Below, piece after piece: positions 894-55,773 of a stretch of DNA of 64,000 bases. Positions within the stretch are counted from its first letter, which is position 1; each line of letters opens with the position of its first letter. Under the pieces are notes generated by a model. The model searched no databases. It was not told the origin of the DNA and saw nothing but the letters and a program-made list of their open reading frames with translations. A program made the translations under genes and the position numbers. The DNA lies in NCBI RefSeq assembly GCF_056712565.1, contig NZ_CM160072.1; one strand, written 5' to 3'.

Positions 894-1668
894 AATTCTC
901 CAAAATTTATATTTAAGTAGCTGAATAAAGAGAGTTAACAATTAAGTTATTCTGTTATTGCTTATAAAACAAGAATCATTCTTGATTGGATGTTGCCCTG
1001 AGAATATAGTTTCCATGGTTATTACATTTCACGAAGAATGATAATATCTTTAAATTACAAGGACACCTATTCACAACAAGTTTATTGCTGCACTTGTTGT
1101 AGAGAGTATTTGTAAAAACATTTTATGTCGCTAAATAACATGACGATTTCATTATGCATGTTATTTATAAACAGCGACTAAACAGAATATTATTGCGAAC
1201 AAGGGAAGTGTCAGGAAAGGTCAAGAGGTACTAATAGTTTATATGGCTATAAACATTAGCTATGATTAATATTTGCCTGGTGAAACTAACACCAAATTGC
1301 TGTAACTCTCTTTGAATCATAAACTGAAGGATGATGCAGCACAGTTCCTCGTGGACTATCCTGGCTACTACATGACCAAACGCGGATATCATCCTCGAGC
1401 AGTCAACTCTGGCCATCTTTTTACTCAGCTATGAGGACCTGATCGTCGACTTTGCTATCTGCATGATGAATCTCCTCAGCAGCAGATGCAGTATTTACCG
1501 AAATGAATTCCATGAATAATGCAGTAATTAGTAGTGCTTTCATATCTGATACCTGTTTTAAACGATATATTTGAAAGTTGACGAATATCGGAAATAGCTT
1601 CCTCCTTCTTGATCTGTAAATATACAGTTCTAAGCTGTCATAAGACTGACTGTCATATGACAACGTTG

Positions 1669-2451
1669 TTAGATTTTTGAATTTTTCGAATACAGATTCA
1701 GGTCGTTAATAACGCACTCAGGTTCTTCAGTAAGGGGCATATTGTCTATATCGAAAACCCCATCATTTTTTTGTGGATTATCATTCCGCAGCTCTGCAAA
1801 CAGAGGAGTGAGATCCTGCTGTGCTTCTCCTCGCTCTGCGACCAGTTCGAACGTTTTATTTTTTGCCGCATCGTTGCTCAGAGCTGTTACAAGAACCTGG
1901 GCGATTTGCTCCCGGGAGATAACACCATCTTCCGGCGTTCCCGCATGGCGTCTGTCCCCCTGAAGCATGACGATTCTGTGCTCATCATCATTGTTGTAAT
2001 CAAACCAGCCGGGTCTGACGATAGTGTAGATATGCCCACTGGCTCTGACCAGGCGTTCAGAGCGTCTCTTCCAGTCATGAACTTCAGTACGTTGATTCCA
2101 GCTACTGAGCCGCTCAGTTACGCCAATCGTTGTCATCAGGGCGATGCGAACAGGTGTATCCATGAATATTCGCAAAATGTTACGTACACCGCCGTAATCT
2201 ATTGCTCTGGCGCCAATACGTCCCTGACCATCAGAGCCGAGTGTAAAAATGATGGCATCAATATCTTTCGGTAAATCGGTAAGTGTTTCAGGTATTGAAA
2301 CATCGCCATAGAAAATATCTGTTCCACGAGGGAGTAACTTGATTTTCCGCCGATTCCTGACCAGAGTCACGGGCTGATGGCCCATTGCAATAGCAGTATT
2401 CACAACATGAATACCAATACTTCCTGTTGCGCCAGCAACGAGTATTCTCAT
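1669..2451 (-). CDS. NAD(P)-binding Rossmann-fold protein (atypical SDR / NmrA-like), 260 aa
   Basis: N-terminal MRILVAGATGSIGIHVV glycine-rich dinucleotide-binding motif; ATG at 2451 preceded by GAAGG. Confidence 0.65.
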   Translation of the reverse strand: MRILVAGATGSIGIHVVNTAIAMGHQPVTLVRNRRKIKLLPRGTDIFYGDVSIPETLTDLPKDIDAIIFTLGSDGQGRIGARAIDYGGVRNILRIFMDTPVRIALMTTIGVTERLSSWNQRTEVHDWKRRSERLVRASGHIYTIVRPGWFDYNNDDEHRIVMLQGDRRHAGTPEDGVISREQIAQVLVTALSNDAAKNKTFELVAERGEAQQDLTPLFAELRNDNPQKNDGVFDIDNMPLTEEPECVINDLNLYSKNSKI

Positions 2452-2560
2452 GATAAACCTTCTGATAATTCAGCCTTATTTTTGATACAGCCAGAATATC
2501 AATTATCATTATTGCCAGTAACGAGGCTAAAATGATTGTGTCTATGAACACCCTTCATGA

Positions 2561-2818
2561 ATGCGCTTTGAAGGGAATGCTTCTACAAGGAAATCTATTC
2601 AACAACGTCTTAAGCAGGCTTCAGATGCACGAGCTCAGGAAGTCGCCGGTAGCGAAGTGCTTTACTCCGGTGATGCCAACCTGACTGATGAACAGATCGC
2701 TAAATTACCTTTTGCGTTATATCGCCAGGGCTACGAGTACTACTGGAAAACCCACGCACACCCAAACATATTCAGAAGCGTGAGGGATATAGTGCCATCA
2801 AAGCGCTGGCTGCTGTAA
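2561..2818 (+). CDS. Hypothetical protein, 85 aa, no recognisable family
   Basis: ORF track only; no convincing Shine-Dalgarno; could be a gene remnant. Confidence 0.2.
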   Translation: MRFEGNASTRKSIQQRLKQASDARAQEVAGSEVLYSGDANLTDEQIAKLPFALYRQGYEYYWKTHAHPNIFRSVRDIVPSKRWLL

Positions 2819-3076
2819 ACAACGCAATTATCCAACTCATGGTCTATGGTGTGCCATCACTGAACAGAGGTTGAATTTTTCTACCGAAACGGGAGGGAAG
2901 TCAGAAATCACAACGTATTGATTTATCTGTGTGTGGATGTGAATGGTGAAGTAAAGGACCTTCACAGGCAATTTAACATAATATACATTATGCGCACCAA
3001 CATAAACCAAGGGAGAATCCAGTCGTTGGCGGTTCATGATTGTTCTGCTCATTAACAACGACCAAAACCCCATATC

Positions 3077-4399
3077 TTACTTAATACCGTATTCTCGGCT
3101 TAACCGACCGTGCAACCTCAACACATTGGTTTCAACTGCCGTCACCACGTTCTCCGGAAAATCTGTCGGTAATGAAGTCTTCACGTTATCCAGTGCTGCC
3201 GGAATCATTCTGGCAAAGTCACTCAGGATTTCATGCATCTGCACTTCCGGGAATTTCAGCACCTTTGCTGTCGCCAGAAAATGTCGCGGATAAATTTTAT
3301 CGATTGCCGTTTTTTTGCCTTTGGATGCGTTAAGCCCCATTGCCAGTTTGAGATCGCTGATGTGTATTCCCGTACCGCCAAGGACCGGAAATGCCGAAAT
3401 GATGTCATAAAATGGTGTGAGCCGATAACTGCCGCCAGCCTGAATAAATACGGAGAAGTTTTTTGCATGGCCATCTGTTGCGCCAATCAACCACTGGAAG
3501 ACCTGAAACTTCATAAAATCATAGCGATCTTTCAGCGCCTCGCTGGACCCCATCAAAAAAGCCATAATTTGCGCGATACCGGGGCCTCCATCTGATTCAT
3601 ATTTCACCGATGAAGGTAAACCGAATGTCTGGCACATATCCTCCTGTGGCAAGCGAAGTAAAACCGTTCGCTCAGTATTCCAACGCCTGTCAAAACGTTT
3701 GACCGCTAACGCGCGCACCCTTCCCGCTTTAATGATTTCTGCGTCCGGAACATTCAACCCGAGTTCTTTCGCCAGCAGCAAACAGTAATACTCATTATCA
3801 ACGCTTTGGCTAAGATCGAGCGTCGCATTGGGCTGTCTGATTTCGCCAATCGGCAATTTGATAATGTGCGTCGTTGGCGTTATTCCCTTCGGAATGCACC
3901 AGTCATTGCCTATTCTGAGCAGCGCAGTCTTCTCCTGTGCGCCAGCAACCGAGATGCGAAAGTCATTTTCTTCTCTAATCATGCCTAACGGGATATCTGC
4001 TTTATAAGCCGTTAATACTTCTTCAAGTCTGGCTTCAGTAAGCTTTTCCCATGCCATTATCGGACACATTACGGTTTCATCTTCGGGGATTAACGTCACG
4101 GCACCAACGCTGTCTCGCCCTATTTCTGACAATAAATCAAACGGTTGTCTGGATTTAGCATGATAACGTTTAACGATCCGGTCACGTACAATCGGGCTAT
4201 CGGGTAACAGGTTATCGAAGAAGTTAAATACGGCATCAGAGGTGATATTCCTCCTCTGCAATGGCAGCGAAAGTGACAACGGTCTGGCATAACGGCTGGC
4301 TAACCACTCAGGTGCATACTTAAAGGTGTGCGCGCCGTTGGCTAACTTCGTTAACTCGCCTACCCGCTGGTTGTTCATCCAAGTGACTAGTTTAGGCAT
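3077..4399 (-). CDS. hipA: Serine/threonine kinase toxin HipA, 440 aa
   Basis: Protein begins MPKLVTWMNNQRVGEL as in E. coli HipA; ORF track start is 19 codons upstream and overlaps hipB. Confidence 0.95.
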   Translation of the reverse strand: MPKLVTWMNNQRVGELTKLANGAHTFKYAPEWLASRYARPLSLSLPLQRRNITSDAVFNFFDNLLPDSPIVRDRIVKRYHAKSRQPFDLLSEIGRDSVGAVTLIPEDETVMCPIMAWEKLTEARLEEVLTAYKADIPLGMIREENDFRISVAGAQEKTALLRIGNDWCIPKGITPTTHIIKLPIGEIRQPNATLDLSQSVDNEYYCLLLAKELGLNVPDAEIIKAGRVRALAVKRFDRRWNTERTVLLRLPQEDMCQTFGLPSSVKYESDGGPGIAQIMAFLMGSSEALKDRYDFMKFQVFQWLIGATDGHAKNFSVFIQAGGSYRLTPFYDIISAFPVLGGTGIHISDLKLAMGLNASKGKKTAIDKIYPRHFLATAKVLKFPEVQMHEILSDFARMIPAALDNVKTSLPTDFPENVVTAVETNVLRLHGRLSREYGIK

Positions 4400-4665
4400 C
4401 ACCACTCCAGATCTTGCTGTTCTGTTGCTTCTGGCGAGGCATTTTTTGCGTCGCATAGCGTCATTGAGAGTTCAAGCGACTGTAAAATCTTAAAAAATGT
4501 CGTGAGCGAGGTATTGTTAGGATTGTTTTCGAAATTGGAAATTGTCGCCTGCTTAATGCCGATTTTTTTCGCCAACTCGCTCTGCGTCCAGCCGTTTTGC
4601 TGGCGAACCAGTTTCATTGCATTCGCCAATTGCATTGGGCTATAGATCTTCTGAAAGCTCATCAT
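4399..4665 (-). CDS. hipB: Antitoxin and HTH repressor HipB, 88 aa
   Basis: MMSFQKIYSP...TEQQDLEW matches HipB; 1-nt overlap with hipA start. Confidence 0.95.
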   Translation of the reverse strand: MMSFQKIYSPMQLANAMKLVRQQNGWTQSELAKKIGIKQATISNFENNPNNTSLTTFFKILQSLELSMTLCDAKNASPEATEQQDLEW

Positions 4666-4686
4666 GTCATACGTCCACAGCAAATT

Positions 4687-4800
4687 TATCCGCTTAAGGG
4701 GATATTATCAGTTTTATCCTTTAGTGAGGATAAAGTCAATCTGGAAACACATCCTATCCGCTCTACGGGATAAACGCTGCGATATCCGCGATCGCGGATA
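4687..4800. promoter_or_regulatory. hipBA promoter with four HipB operators (TATCC-N8-GGATA at 4687-4704, 4715-4732, 4755-4772, 4783-4800)
   Basis: Four exact TATCC-N8-GGATA palindromes seen directly upstream of hipB; matches the known operator consensus. Confidence 0.85.
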
Positions 4801-4972
4801 AAAAGGAGGATTTAAAAAAGCACATCCTAATGCGGTGGCTTCTTTGACTACCGGAATCTGTAATCTTAATGACCTGGCCGCGTAAAAAACGTCTGTTCAA
4901 TGGGGTGATGCCGTGAGGCGAATTTATCAGTTTTATCTACAATTGGGGTAACGCGCTGACGGGAGTAAAAAA

Positions 4973-5731
4973 ATGTCTGACTGGAACCCCTCTTTATATC
5001 TACACTTTGCCGCTGAACGATCGCGTCCGGCGGTGGAGCTGCTTGCCAGGGTGTCGCTGGAGAATATCGAATACATTGCCGATCTTGGCTGTGGCCCAGG
5101 TAACAGCACCGCCCTTCTACACCAACGTTGGCCTGCTGCCAGGATAACGGGCATCGACTCATCTCCGGCGATGATTGCTGAAGCGCGCAGTGCTTTGCCA
5201 GACTGCCTGTTTGTGGAAGCAGATATCCGCAACTGGCAACCGGAACAGGCACTCGATCTGATTTTTGCTAATGCCTCGCTGCAATGGCTGCCCGACCACT
5301 ACGAATTGTTTCCTCATTTGGTTTCGTTACTCAGTCCGCTGGGCGTGCTGGCAGTACAGATGCCAGATAACTGGCTGGAGCCGACCCATGTGCTCATGCG
5401 CGAAGTTGCCTGGGAACAAAACTACCCGGATCGCGGGCGTGAGCCGCTGGCTGGCGTTCATGCTTACTACGATATTCTGAGTGAAGCCGGATGTGAGGTC
5501 GATATCTGGCGAACCACTTACTATCACCAGATGCCGTCGCACCAGGCGATTATCGATTGGGTGACCGCCACTGGATTACGTCCGTGGTTACAGGATCTGA
5601 CCGAGAGCGAACAGCAGCATTTTCTTACGCGCTACCATCAGATGCTGGAAGAGCAATATCCCCTCCAGGAGAACGGACAGATATTGCTGGCATTTCCGCG
5701 TCTGTTTATTGTTGCCCGCCGTACGGAGTAA
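4973..5731 (+). CDS. tam: Trans-aconitate 2-methyltransferase, 252 aa
   Basis: [24 protein letters not shown]... with SAM-binding motif [10 protein letters not shown]. Confidence 0.9.
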
Positions 5732-5734
5732 TTA

Positions 5735-6649
5735 TCACGTCAGCTGGTAATGGCGATCGGGAAGAATTTTCGCTGGAATTTCTGCTTCATCGTTCATCTG
5801 TAACAGGTCAATTTCAATAGCGTTGCAGATGGCATCCAGCGGTAAATCATTGTTTTCAGTACCGAAGGGATCTTCCAGTTCTTCCGCCAGACAATCCAGC
5901 GAAATAAAAGTGTAGGAAATCAGCACAGAGATAAAAGGCGTCATGTAATGCAGATCCACGACCAGCGCGAACGGCAGCATGATACAAAACAGATAAACGG
6001 TACGATGCAAAATCAGGGTGTAGGCAAAGGGAATTGGCGTGTAGGCAATGCGCTCGCAGCCTGCCAGAACTGCTGAAATATCATTAAGCCGATCGTTGAG
6101 GCTAATAAACAGGATATCTGAAAGCTGCCCATTGCGGCGCTGAACCGCCAACCACTCCCCCATTATTAACAAGATACGGTTAGCTGGAGAGTTCGAAGCC
6201 AGTACACGCTGAAGATCTTCCGTCTTGAGATATTGAGCCAGCACTTCCGCCTGTGGTTGTTTGCGTAATGTCATGCGTAAACAGTGAGCGAAGGCGATTT
6301 GCAGCCGGGCAAACTCCCTTACACTTGCCGAATCTGGCAATGTCGTTTTTACCTCGCGCAGTAACGACCGTGAGGCAATCATCAACTGCCCCCAAAGTTT
6401 TCGCGCTTCAACGTAACGGGCGTACCCGGCATTATTACGAAAACCAAGAAAAATGGCGATGGCGACACCGAGAATGCTGAACGGTGCGAGGGTGAATTTA
6501 ATGCCCAAATGCGTGTACCAGGGCAGCATGAAAATAACAGCGATAGAAAAGAGAAAATTGAGTAGTAAGCGCGAGGATATCTTGGATAATACTGAACCGT
6601 GCCAGACAAAAATACGGCGCAGCCAGTGTTGTTGTGGACGAACAATCAT
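5735..6649 (-). CDS. yneE: Bestrophin-family membrane protein YneE, 304 aa
   Basis: Recognised as YneE; internal start MIVRPQQHW chosen to give the 304-aa length. Confidence 0.85.
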   Translation of the reverse strand: MIVRPQQHWLRRIFVWHGSVLSKISSRLLLNFLFSIAVIFMLPWYTHLGIKFTLAPFSILGVAIAIFLGFRNNAGYARYVEARKLWGQLMIASRSLLREVKTTLPDSASVREFARLQIAFAHCLRMTLRKQPQAEVLAQYLKTEDLQRVLASNSPANRILLIMGEWLAVQRRNGQLSDILFISLNDRLNDISAVLAGCERIAYTPIPFAYTLILHRTVYLFCIMLPFALVVDLHYMTPFISVLISYTFISLDCLAEELEDPFGTENNDLPLDAICNAIEIDLLQMNDEAEIPAKILPDRHYQLT

Positions 6650-8523: not shown

Positions 8524-9942
8524 TCAGACAACTTCCTCACCGTAACGCATAGTGCTGGTACGGTTGCGCCCATCTTTCTTCGAGCGATACAGACACGTAT
8601 CGGCTTCGACCATCAATTTATTAAAGTCATCGGTCAGCGTTCGGTACGATGCGCAACCACTACCGACGCCAATACTTACCGTGAGATAAAGCGTTTTTTG
8701 TTGCCAGGTGAACGGTTGAAGTTCTACGCCTTTACGGATTTTTTCCGCCATTAGCAGGCCATCGACAGGATTCACCGACGGCACTGCAACAGCAAATTCT
8801 TCGCCGCCCATTCGCGCCACCAGCCCCTTATCACCGACAATCTTCTGAATATGCTGGGCAAACACGCTTAACACTTTATCGCCACATTCATGTCCATAGT
8901 TATCGTTAATGCTTTTGAAATAGTCGATATCAAGCAGCATGACCGTCAGATGTTGTGTCTGTTTCAGCGATGGACTTTTCAGCGCCTCATAAAGACCAGA
9001 CCGTGAGTAAACCTGAGTCAGAAAATCAAAGTCGGCTCGCAGCGCAACTTGCTTCATTAGCGAATGGATCGCTGCCACGCTAAAGGAAACCATAATTGGG
9101 CATATCGCCATCGTGGCAATACCGAGACGTGCGGAGAACATTTGCGGAATAGAGAACGGCGAACCGACCGAGATATCAATCACCGAATTTGCCACCAGTA
9201 CGACTTCCACCGCACCGGTGACAAAGGTCAACAGACATGTTACCTGCGGCGTATAGCGCACTGCACACCAGATTAATGCAGGGAGCGGAAACGCCAGACT
9301 CCCCGCTCCACCAATGACTACCGAGGCAATAACCGACACAATAAGCGCGATAGCAGGCATCATCTGCTCTGCTTTAAAGCGCGGCAGCACTCCAGGAATT
9401 GCCAACGTCAGCATACAAGGCACGATCAACACGCCCGTTGAGAATTGCTCACTAAACCAGTCGGCAAGCAAAGGCCAGAAATCCAGACTATCAATACTGA
9501 CCGAACCAATCGCCCCGACAATAGCGCATAATAATGCGGCAAGCAGACAGTAATTAAATAGCCGTAAGGCACTTACTGGCTCATACTTATTTTTTCCCAG
9601 ACTCTTATCCCGCGCGACCAGTAAGGCGACGGTAACAATAAACATCATATTGGAGAAATTGATAGCCAGTGAAACCAGCCCCCATTCGGTGGTTATGGCA
9701 TCATAAACCAGCATCGCCACATAACTGATCGCATAGTAATGCAGTCGATTAAGCCAGACATAGCGGGCAAACACCCCCGCCATTACGCCATTCAGCGGCC
9801 AGAAAAGAGAAAGTTCGTGAACCAGTCGTAACTCTGCACCAATAAAATAGAACAGCGTGGTTAGCACAAAAATAGCGATGCTATTACGTAGCAGATGACC
9901 TTCCTGGAACAAACGGAAAGTTGAAATGGGCTGTACATGCAT
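8524..9942 (-). CDS. dgcF: Membrane-anchored diguanylate cyclase (GGDEF domain), 472 aa
   Basis: Multi-TM N-terminus, GGEEF active-site motif; position matches yneF/dgcF. Confidence 0.85.
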   Translation of the reverse strand: MHVQPISTFRLFQEGHLLRNSIAIFVLTTLFYFIGAELRLVHELSLFWPLNGVMAGVFARYVWLNRLHYYAISYVAMLVYDAITTEWGLVSLAINFSNMMFIVTVALLVARDKSLGKNKYEPVSALRLFNYCLLAALLCAIVGAIGSVSIDSLDFWPLLADWFSEQFSTGVLIVPCMLTLAIPGVLPRFKAEQMMPAIALIVSVIASVVIGGAGSLAFPLPALIWCAVRYTPQVTCLLTFVTGAVEVVLVANSVIDISVGSPFSIPQMFSARLGIATMAICPIMVSFSVAAIHSLMKQVALRADFDFLTQVYSRSGLYEALKSPSLKQTQHLTVMLLDIDYFKSINDNYGHECGDKVLSVFAQHIQKIVGDKGLVARMGGEEFAVAVPSVNPVDGLLMAEKIRKGVELQPFTWQQKTLYLTVSIGVGSGCASYRTLTDDFNKLMVEADTCLYRSKKDGRNRTSTMRYGEEVV

Positions 9943-10080
9943 TAATTATCTGTCCATACAATTGCGGGTGGCAATTATCTCAACGCAATAAGTAAATTCT
10001 TAGAAAGGATAGCATGTTCGCTGACAACGGCGGCAACTAAAGATACCTAATGAATGCCATTTTATCGATTTCCGTAATTA

Positions 10081-54738: not shown

Positions 54739-55773
54739 ATGGCAAAGCCGATCATCACGCTCAATGGCCTAAAAATCGTCATTATGTTGGGAATGCTGGT
54801 CATTATTCTCTGCGGTATCCGTTTTGCCGCCGAGATCATCGTGCCGTTTATTCTCGCATTATTTATTGCTGTTATTCTTAACCCGCTGGTGCAACACATG
54901 GTCCGCTGGCGTGTGCCGCGTGTACTGGCAGTGTCAATTTTGATGACCATCATCGTGATGGCGATGGTGTTGCTGTTAGCTTATCTGGGTTCCGCGCTCA
55001 ATGAGTTGACGCGGACGTTACCGCAATATCGCAACTCTATTATGACGCCGCTGCAAGCGATTGAACCGTTGTTGCAACGCGTAGGGATTGATGTCTCAGT
55101 TGACCAACTGGCGCATTACATTGATCCGAACGCGGCGATGACGTTGCTCACCAACTTATTGACGCAGTTATCTAATGCCATGTCATCAATATTTTTATTG
55201 CTGCTGACGGTGCTGTTTATGTTGCTCGAAGTGCCACAATTGCCCGGAAAATTTCAGCAAATGATGGCGCGTCCGGTTGAAGGGATGGCGGCGATTCAGC
55301 GTGCGATTGACAGTGTGTCTCATTATCTGGTGCTGAAAACAGCCATCAGCATCATCACCGGCCTGGTCGCCTGGGCGATGCTCGCCGCACTCGATGTTCG
55401 CTTCGCTTTTGTCTGGGGATTGCTGGCCTTTGCGCTTAATTACATCCCGAATATTGGTTCAGTTCTCGCGGCAATCCCCCCTATCGCTCAGGTACTGGTG
55501 TTTAATGGCTTCTACGAAGCGTTGCTGGTGCTGGCGGGATATCTGCTGATTAATCTGGTCTTCGGCAATATTCTGGAGCCACGCATCATGGGGCGTGGGC
55601 TGGGGCTTTCCACATTGGTGGTATTTTTGTCGTTGATTTTTTGGGGATGGTTGTTAGGACCGGTGGGTATGCTGCTTTCCGTGCCGTTGACAATTATTGT
55701 CAAAATTGCGCTTGAACAAACAGCGGGAGGTCAAAGCATCGCCGTTCTGTTAAGCGATCTCAATAAAGAGTGA
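54739..55773 (+). CDS. tqsA: AI-2 transport protein TqsA (YdgG), 344 aa
   Basis: AI-2E family membrane protein; full length. Confidence 0.9.

Follow-up and report, generated by a model that had tools for sequence, protein, structure and literature searches.

What removed the yneO and lsr genes from between hipB and tam, and did their removal affect the control of hipBA or the handling of AI-2? In the 64-kb stretch of DNA analysed here (the window), hipB and tam are divergent neighbours separated by 307 bp (4666-4972), whereas the hipB-tam interval of E. coli K-12 measures 14.9 kb and holds yneO, lsrKR and lsrACDBFG. Our reading, to which we assign a probability of about 0.95, is that this interval is a scar left by the deletion that typifies E. 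coli phylogroup B2, a lineage to which many urinary and bloodstream pathogens belong.

The hipB-tam interval and its comparison with K-12

The original prediction that hipB adjoins tam, with yneO and the lsr genes gone, is borne out by the open reading frames, the profile matches and the comparison with K-12. The genes hipA, hipB and tam are all intact (Table 1), and yneE, then uxaB, lie beyond tam. The first two form an overlapping operon in which base 4399 is common to both genes. Together, the genes for the HipB antitoxin/repressor and the HipA kinase and the four operators identify the locus as a HipBA type II toxin-antitoxin module. The true start of hipB is the ATG at 4665 (MMSFQK...), as indicated by the full-length match to NF007271 and by the RefSeq annotation of identical genomes; the TTG at 4683 opens the longest open reading frame containing hipB. 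Since the interval had previously been measured from this TTG, the earlier estimate of about 290 bp, starting at 4684, has to be corrected to 307 bp.

At the protein level, HipA carries 10 substitutions relative to K-12 (G50R, T111M, H112C, N227R, E234K, A242T, R277Q, R382K, S424T and S439I) and HipB carries five (T11M, D50N, T53S, S80A and N85D). At G22 and D291, the positions of the high-persistence allele hipA7, the HipA of the window shows no change from K-12.

Table 1. Features of the hipBA-tam region and tqsA, in window coordinates
Feature	Position	Strand	Description
hipA	3077..4399	-	440 aa, intact; N-terminal domain TIGR03071, E = 2.3e-30; hipA in the annotation of identical genomes
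hipB	4399..4665	-	88 aa, intact; HipB equivalog NF007271, 181.9 bits (cutoff 79), residues 1-88 of 88
HipB operator O1	4687..4704		TATCCGCTTAAGGGGATA, exact TATCCN8GGATA
HipB operator O2	4715..4732		TATCCTTTAGTGAGGATA, exact TATCCN8GGATA
HipB operator O3	4755..4772		TATCCGCTCTACGGGATA, exact TATCCN8GGATA
HipB operator O4	4783..4800		TATCCGCGATCGCGGATA, exact TATCCN8GGATA
Left deletion junction	4820..4821		K-12 hipB-side homology stops 20 bases past the last base of O4 (4800)
lsrK remnant	4820..4857	-	38 bp, internal (nt 1345-1382 of 1593), K-12 orientation; 36/38 identical, E = 9e-11
Right deletion junction, lsrK remnant to lsrG remnant	4854..4857		Two blastn alignments overlap here
lsrG 3' remnant	4854..4916	+	Last ~64 nt, TGA stop 4914-4916; blastn match, E = 7e-17
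lsrG-tam spacer	4917..4972	+	Original 56 bp, collinear with positions 19291-19346 of the K-12 segment
tam (trans-aconitate 2-methyltransferase)	4973..5731	+	252 aa, intact; NF002463, 443.9 bits (cutoff 297)
tqsA (ydgG), AI-2E family transporter	54739..55773	+	Intact; NF008930, 672.6 bits (cutoff 318), residues 1-344 of 344

The K-12 reference was the segment 1,588,000-1,612,000 of NC_000913.3, in which the locus from hipBA to tam occupies 1,590,854-1,608,104. The gene order read there is hipA, hipB, the yneO pseudogene, lsrK, lsrR, lsrACDBFG and tam, which confirms the order that had been stated earlier (hipBA, yneO, lsr locus, tam). When window positions 4300-5300 are aligned with this segment by blastn, they resolve into three collinear pieces. 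The first (4300-4820, 96% identity) comprises the end of hipA, hipB and the operator region; the second is a short internal fragment of lsrK; and the third (4854-5300, 95% identity) carries the tail of lsrG, the lsrG-tam spacer and tam. The lsrG remnant is also recognised by tblastn, which aligns LsrG residues 81-96 with 14 of 16 positions identical (E = 4.6e-6). The lsr remnants make up about 100 of the 307 bp, or about a third of the interval. Hence, of the earlier description of the interval as operators and a tam promoter and nothing else, the operators stand but the exclusivity does not, since the 38-bp lsrK and ~64-nt lsrG remnants are present.

The same alignment, which had been proposed as the way to define the breakpoint, places breakpoints at 4820/4821 and at 4854-4857. 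The left junction accounts for about 6.23 kb of missing DNA (yneO and the 3' 211 nt of lsrK) and shows a microhomology of 1 nt (G), and the right junction accounts for about 8.36 kb (the rest of lsrK, lsrR, lsrACDBF and most of lsrG), with GAA(T) microhomology. In total, about 14.6 kb is missing relative to K-12. Neither blastn nor tblastn gave any other match to yneO or the lsr genes in the 64-kb window, at the DNA or the protein level: lsrA, lsrC, lsrD and lsrB have no match beyond chance, lsrR and lsrF none, and lsrK and lsrG are found there as remnants only. On the other hand, the flanks remain collinear with the K-12 MG1655 locus at 95-97% identity, the operator half-sites are identical, and conservation extends to tam and the spacer between lsrG and tam. 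The differences from MG1655 include the missing 14.6 kb and the lsrK fragment that replaces the K-12 sequence upstream of O4. As for coding potential across the scar, the sole ATG found by reading (4840) is followed by a stop after five codons, and the antisense open reading frames at 4866-5252 and 4933-5232, which overlap tam, were treated as spurious.

Some differences from K-12 lie elsewhere in the window. A stretch of 498 bp absent from K-12 (9510-10007) overlaps the open reading frame 8524-9942 on the minus strand; dgcF/yneF, annotated as a sensor domain-containing diguanylate cyclase, encodes 472 aa here versus 315 aa in K-12, whose copy seems to have lost its 5' end. Positions 1306-2970, which lie between the fimbrial operon and hipA, have no K-12 counterpart. 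In FDAARGOS_536, the annotation of this region shows a LysR regulator and an NAD(P)H-binding protein, both fragmentary, together with a small acetylxylan esterase; in SF-468 it shows an SDR oxidoreductase. The fimbrial usher is full length in the window, whereas ydeT of K-12 is truncated.

Control of hipBA and tam next to the junction

The presence of four intact HipB operators, as originally predicted, is clear: all four are exact TATCCN8GGATA matches, against 0.01 such sites expected by chance from shuffles of the window. The gaps between them measure 10/22/10 bp, compared with 10/21/10 in K-12 (PMC4150777). To this comparison we can add an alignment of the operator region from thirteen alleles, eight of them lsr-positive, in which the extra O2-O3 base also occurs in the lsr-positive strains A30, A38 and FDAARGOS_1281. 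Since lsr-positive strains have it, the longer O2-O3 spacer is an independent polymorphism, and the idea that it results from the deletion, or goes along with it, was rejected. The suggestion that the junction had altered operator spacing therefore finds no support. On the hipB strand, the K-12 TATAAT reads GATAAT here, the C being common to all sampled alleles except K-12, BL21 and FDAARGOS_1248. In E2348/69 (NC_011601.1), a 1-bp spacer deletion turns O2 into TATCC-N7-GGATA, which departs from the HipB consensus; the other twelve alleles keep N8.

The positions of the hipBA and tam promoters are putative. A consensus scan returned neither a sigma-70 promoter nor a terminator in 4600-5050, and a candidate tam -10 element, C-TACAAT at 4937-4943, was noted by eye and not detected by the scan. 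The tam promoter formerly assigned to the interval thus keeps the standing of a candidate. In strain 83972, tam is induced at the entry into stationary phase regardless of lsr (PMC12263705), and such induction in an lsr-negative strain fits a tam promoter located within the retained DNA. Autoregulation of hipBA by HipB and expression of tam should be essentially unchanged by the deletion.

A 22-nt imperfect direct repeat (86% identical) links the two sides of the interval, with one copy at 4697-4718, between O1 and O2, and the other at 4916-4937, in the lsrG-tam spacer. The copies share the exact 13-mer TATCAGTTTTATC, a length of exact repetition that chance would not be expected to produce within 451 bp. 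The K-12 counterparts of this 13-mer differ from each other at 2 of 13 positions. The repeat may be AT-rich promoter-like sequence present on both sides.

A possible effect of the deletion on hipBA concerns IHF. K-12 carries the IHF-like motif CATCAACGCCTTA, with one mismatch to the consensus WATCAANNNNTTR, immediately upstream of O4; it is the only such motif in the K-12 hipB-yneO spacer. Located at 4594-4606 of the NC_000913.3 segment (1,588,000-1,612,000), it straddles the left breakpoint at 4597, and window 4666-4972 contains no sequence within one mismatch of the IHF consensus. Reviews describe IHF as an activator of hipBA that binds DNA upstream of its promoter (PMC7167474, PMC3376134). 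Both the cut motif and this reported activation would favour a regulatory rewiring, in which the deletion altered the control of hipBA (or tam) and left B2 strains without IHF activation of hipBA. However, small indels have removed the motif from four of the eight sampled lsr-positive strains (A30, A38, CH458 and FDAARGOS_1281), while the window retains intact operators and an intact core promoter region. Since half of the sampled lsr-positive strains are without the motif, it cannot count as a conserved element, and its loss also occurs independently of the lsr deletion. We thus regard such rewiring as unlikely, and a regulatory effect on hipBA specific to the deletion is likewise unlikely. 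Less probable again is the fuller scenario in which the breakpoint exchanged a putative IHF site for lsrK DNA, so that hipBA in B2/ExPEC strains would be without IHF activation and the levels of HipB/HipA and of persisters would be shifted. If this were true, basal HipB/HipA and persister formation would differ systematically from K-12, and the lsr deletion would be tied to antibiotic tolerance.

Origin of the scar and its distribution in E. coli

Because lsr debris sits inside the interval, the arrangement arose by deletion. An ancestor with the K-12-like order hipBA, yneO (autotransporter), lsrK lsrR, lsrACDBFG and tam lost about 14.6 kb at two junctions, one extending from the O4 side to the interior of lsrK and the other joining lsrK with the terminal 64 nt of lsrG. 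Both junctions show microhomology of 1-4 nt, which points to illegitimate recombination, and the yneO-lsr DNA could have been lost by two sequential deletions or by one complex event. The loss left behind the full hipBA regulatory region with its four operators, the 38-bp lsrK piece, the lsrG tail and the 56-bp spacer. None of the alleles compared is an intermediate that carries just one of the two B2 breakpoints. The alleles of BL21 and FDAARGOS_1248 were considered as such intermediates and rejected, as their breakpoints differ and both keep K-12-like sequence beyond O4.

An early-branching position within E. coli is often assigned to phylogroup B2, and this position would suit the opposite polarity, namely a primitive B2 state, with yneO and lsr entering the hipB-tam interval of other lineages by insertion. 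A proposed horizontal movement of the lsr locus between genera (cited in PMC12263705) would also be compatible with it. However, deletion alone leaves fragments such as those seen here, a 38-bp stretch of internal lsrK sequence and the terminal 64 nt of lsrG together with its stop codon. Moreover, lsr is present in E. fergusonii, in the cryptic Escherichia clades and in Salmonella, and ancestral-state reconstruction favours its presence (PMC3595036). Ancestral absence is thus very improbable, and deletion remains the preferred origin.

The scar is widespread. Of 5,426 complete E. coli genomes searched by megablast with window 4300-5300, 960 carry the contiguous hipB-tam junction, each in one unbroken alignment of 98.4-100% identity; among them are SF-468, Nissle 1917, E2348/69 (99.4%), O25:H4 and FDAARGOS_536 (100%). 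SF-468 is 100% identical to the window over 5 kb and FDAARGOS_536 is 100% identical across the region; the scar sequence, including both junctions, is identical in E2348/69, FDAARGOS_1253, O25:H4 and FDAARGOS_536. We take E2348/69, Nissle 1917 and O25:H4 to be B2 strains. The Clermont markers of the phylogroup (chuA, yjaA and TspE4.C2) lie outside the window; judging from its 99-100% identity to SF-468, Nissle 1917 and E2348/69, the host of the window would probably belong to phylogroup B2 as well. The frequency of the junction in our collection (17.7%) is near the 18.6% share of B2 in the data set of PMC12263705. In substance, nothing distinguishes the window from the B2 lsr-negative allele (83972, Nissle 1917, E2348/69, NC101 and ST131 O25:H4), with which it shares the contiguous hipB-tam junction, less than 100 bp of lsr and a retained tam.

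Copies of lsr elsewhere in the genome, which the original prediction had named as the sign of an assembly artefact, were searched for with two kinds of query. A first chimeric query, made of window 3300-6300 and eight 100-bp lsr tags, had its top matches filled by 80 genomes of the BL21/B and FDAARGOS_1248 types, because their partial deletions let all pieces join. A second one combined window 1300-6300 with one 60-bp tag per lsr gene, eight in all, and was read in 11 junction-type genomes: in 10 of them no lsr fragment was found elsewhere on the chromosome, and MS1494 had a second matching place. The other query was the K-12 lsrK-lsrG block (8,673 bp), run against complete E. coli genomes. 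It was covered to at least 80% in 4,175 genomes, and in about 939 chromosomes, such as those of NC101, Seattle 1946 and UPEC 26-1, the best lsr match was the lsrG remnant of 56-64 bp (90-95% identical), as judged by megablast, which would overlook a horizontally acquired lsr copy of high divergence. That lsr is missing elsewhere is thus established for SF-468 and FDAARGOS_536, which match the window exactly over 1-5 kb, and for the junction class. A collapse of lsr out of the assembly, or its relocation elsewhere in the genome, is practically negligible as an explanation, given 960 independent complete genomes with the junction, a single matching place for the tagged query in 10 of the 11 sampled junction-type chromosomes, the lsrG remnant as the sole best lsr match in some 939 chromosomes, and lsr places on plasmids that number 5 in the whole collection. 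The loss of yneO and lsr is therefore real.

Deletions with other breakpoints occur at the same locus. In E. coli B/BL21, the DNA from the 5' part of yneO through lsrC is lost, and in FDAARGOS_1248 most of yneO, lsrK, lsrA and part of lsrC are lost while lsrR and lsrDBFG are kept. Both alleles resemble the window in kind, being large truncating deletions that inactivate AI-2 uptake. Since their breakpoints differ from those of the B2 scar, they are independent deletion events, and such independent partial deletions fit the at least eight losses inferred by Brito et al. BL21(DE3) carries a truncated autotransporter gene fused to a truncated lsr permease gene, with lsrB, lsrF and lsrG kept. As for the lsr-positive strains A30, A38, CH458 and FDAARGOS_1281, the counterpart of yneO is an intact 5.4-kb autotransporter gene of the ECSE_1600 family, and the spacer from O4 to the autotransporter stop has deletions of 13 to 40 bp relative to K-12.

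Relation to published lsr losses and meaning for AI-2

Loss of lsr in E. coli has been described at the level of genes. Brito et al. (2013, PMC3595036) found lsr to be ancestral in the species, with at least eight losses, mostly large truncations, and luxS always kept. In a 2025 study of 32,404 genomes (PMC12263705), more than 95% of B2 genomes keep less than 100 bp of lsr-locus homology and retain tam and luxS, and reintroduction of lsr into strain 83972 lowered its fitness. With its contiguous junction and its 38-bp and 64-bp remnants, the allele of the window falls within the "<100 bp" class of that study, that is, the B2-type lsr deletion. The lsr deletion in B2 is thus already known, published since 2012-2013, and is the norm for the phylogroup; what had been singled out as a noteworthy feature of this strain is the standard published state of B2. 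A term search of PMC3595036 and PMC12263705 returned no mention of hipB, yneO or the remnants, and the breakpoints given here at the level of bases are a small refinement of the published loss. The description of the scar, with its two junctions, 38-bp lsrK piece and 64-bp lsrG piece, shows deletion rather than non-acquisition and can serve as a precise marker, in silico or by PCR, of the B2-type allele. It is accompanied by the direct finding that lsr is missing elsewhere in junction-type genomes (10 of 11 sampled) and by the observation that the hipBA operators are untouched, the 1-bp spacer difference being unrelated to the deletion.

The gene for the AI-2 exporter, tqsA, is present where it had been reported, with a match to NF008930 well above the cutoff; its export activity is predicted. 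It follows from the deletion that the strain is without the Lsr transporter, the LsrK kinase, the LsrR repressor and the LsrFG processing enzymes, while tqsA is kept. Very probably, luxS is also kept, outside the window. The expectation that such a strain releases AI-2 and is unable to import it via Lsr broadly holds, with one nuance. Strain 83972, an lsr-negative member of B2, produces AI-2, releases it and still takes it up without LsrACDB, but lacks phosphorylation by LsrK and LsrR-based sensing (PMC12263705). This persistent uptake indicates that the functional loss lies in LsrK phosphorylation, sequestration and LsrR sensing, not in an absolute block of AI-2 entry. Strains of this type would thus produce and release AI-2 without phosphorylating, sequestering or sensing it through Lsr.
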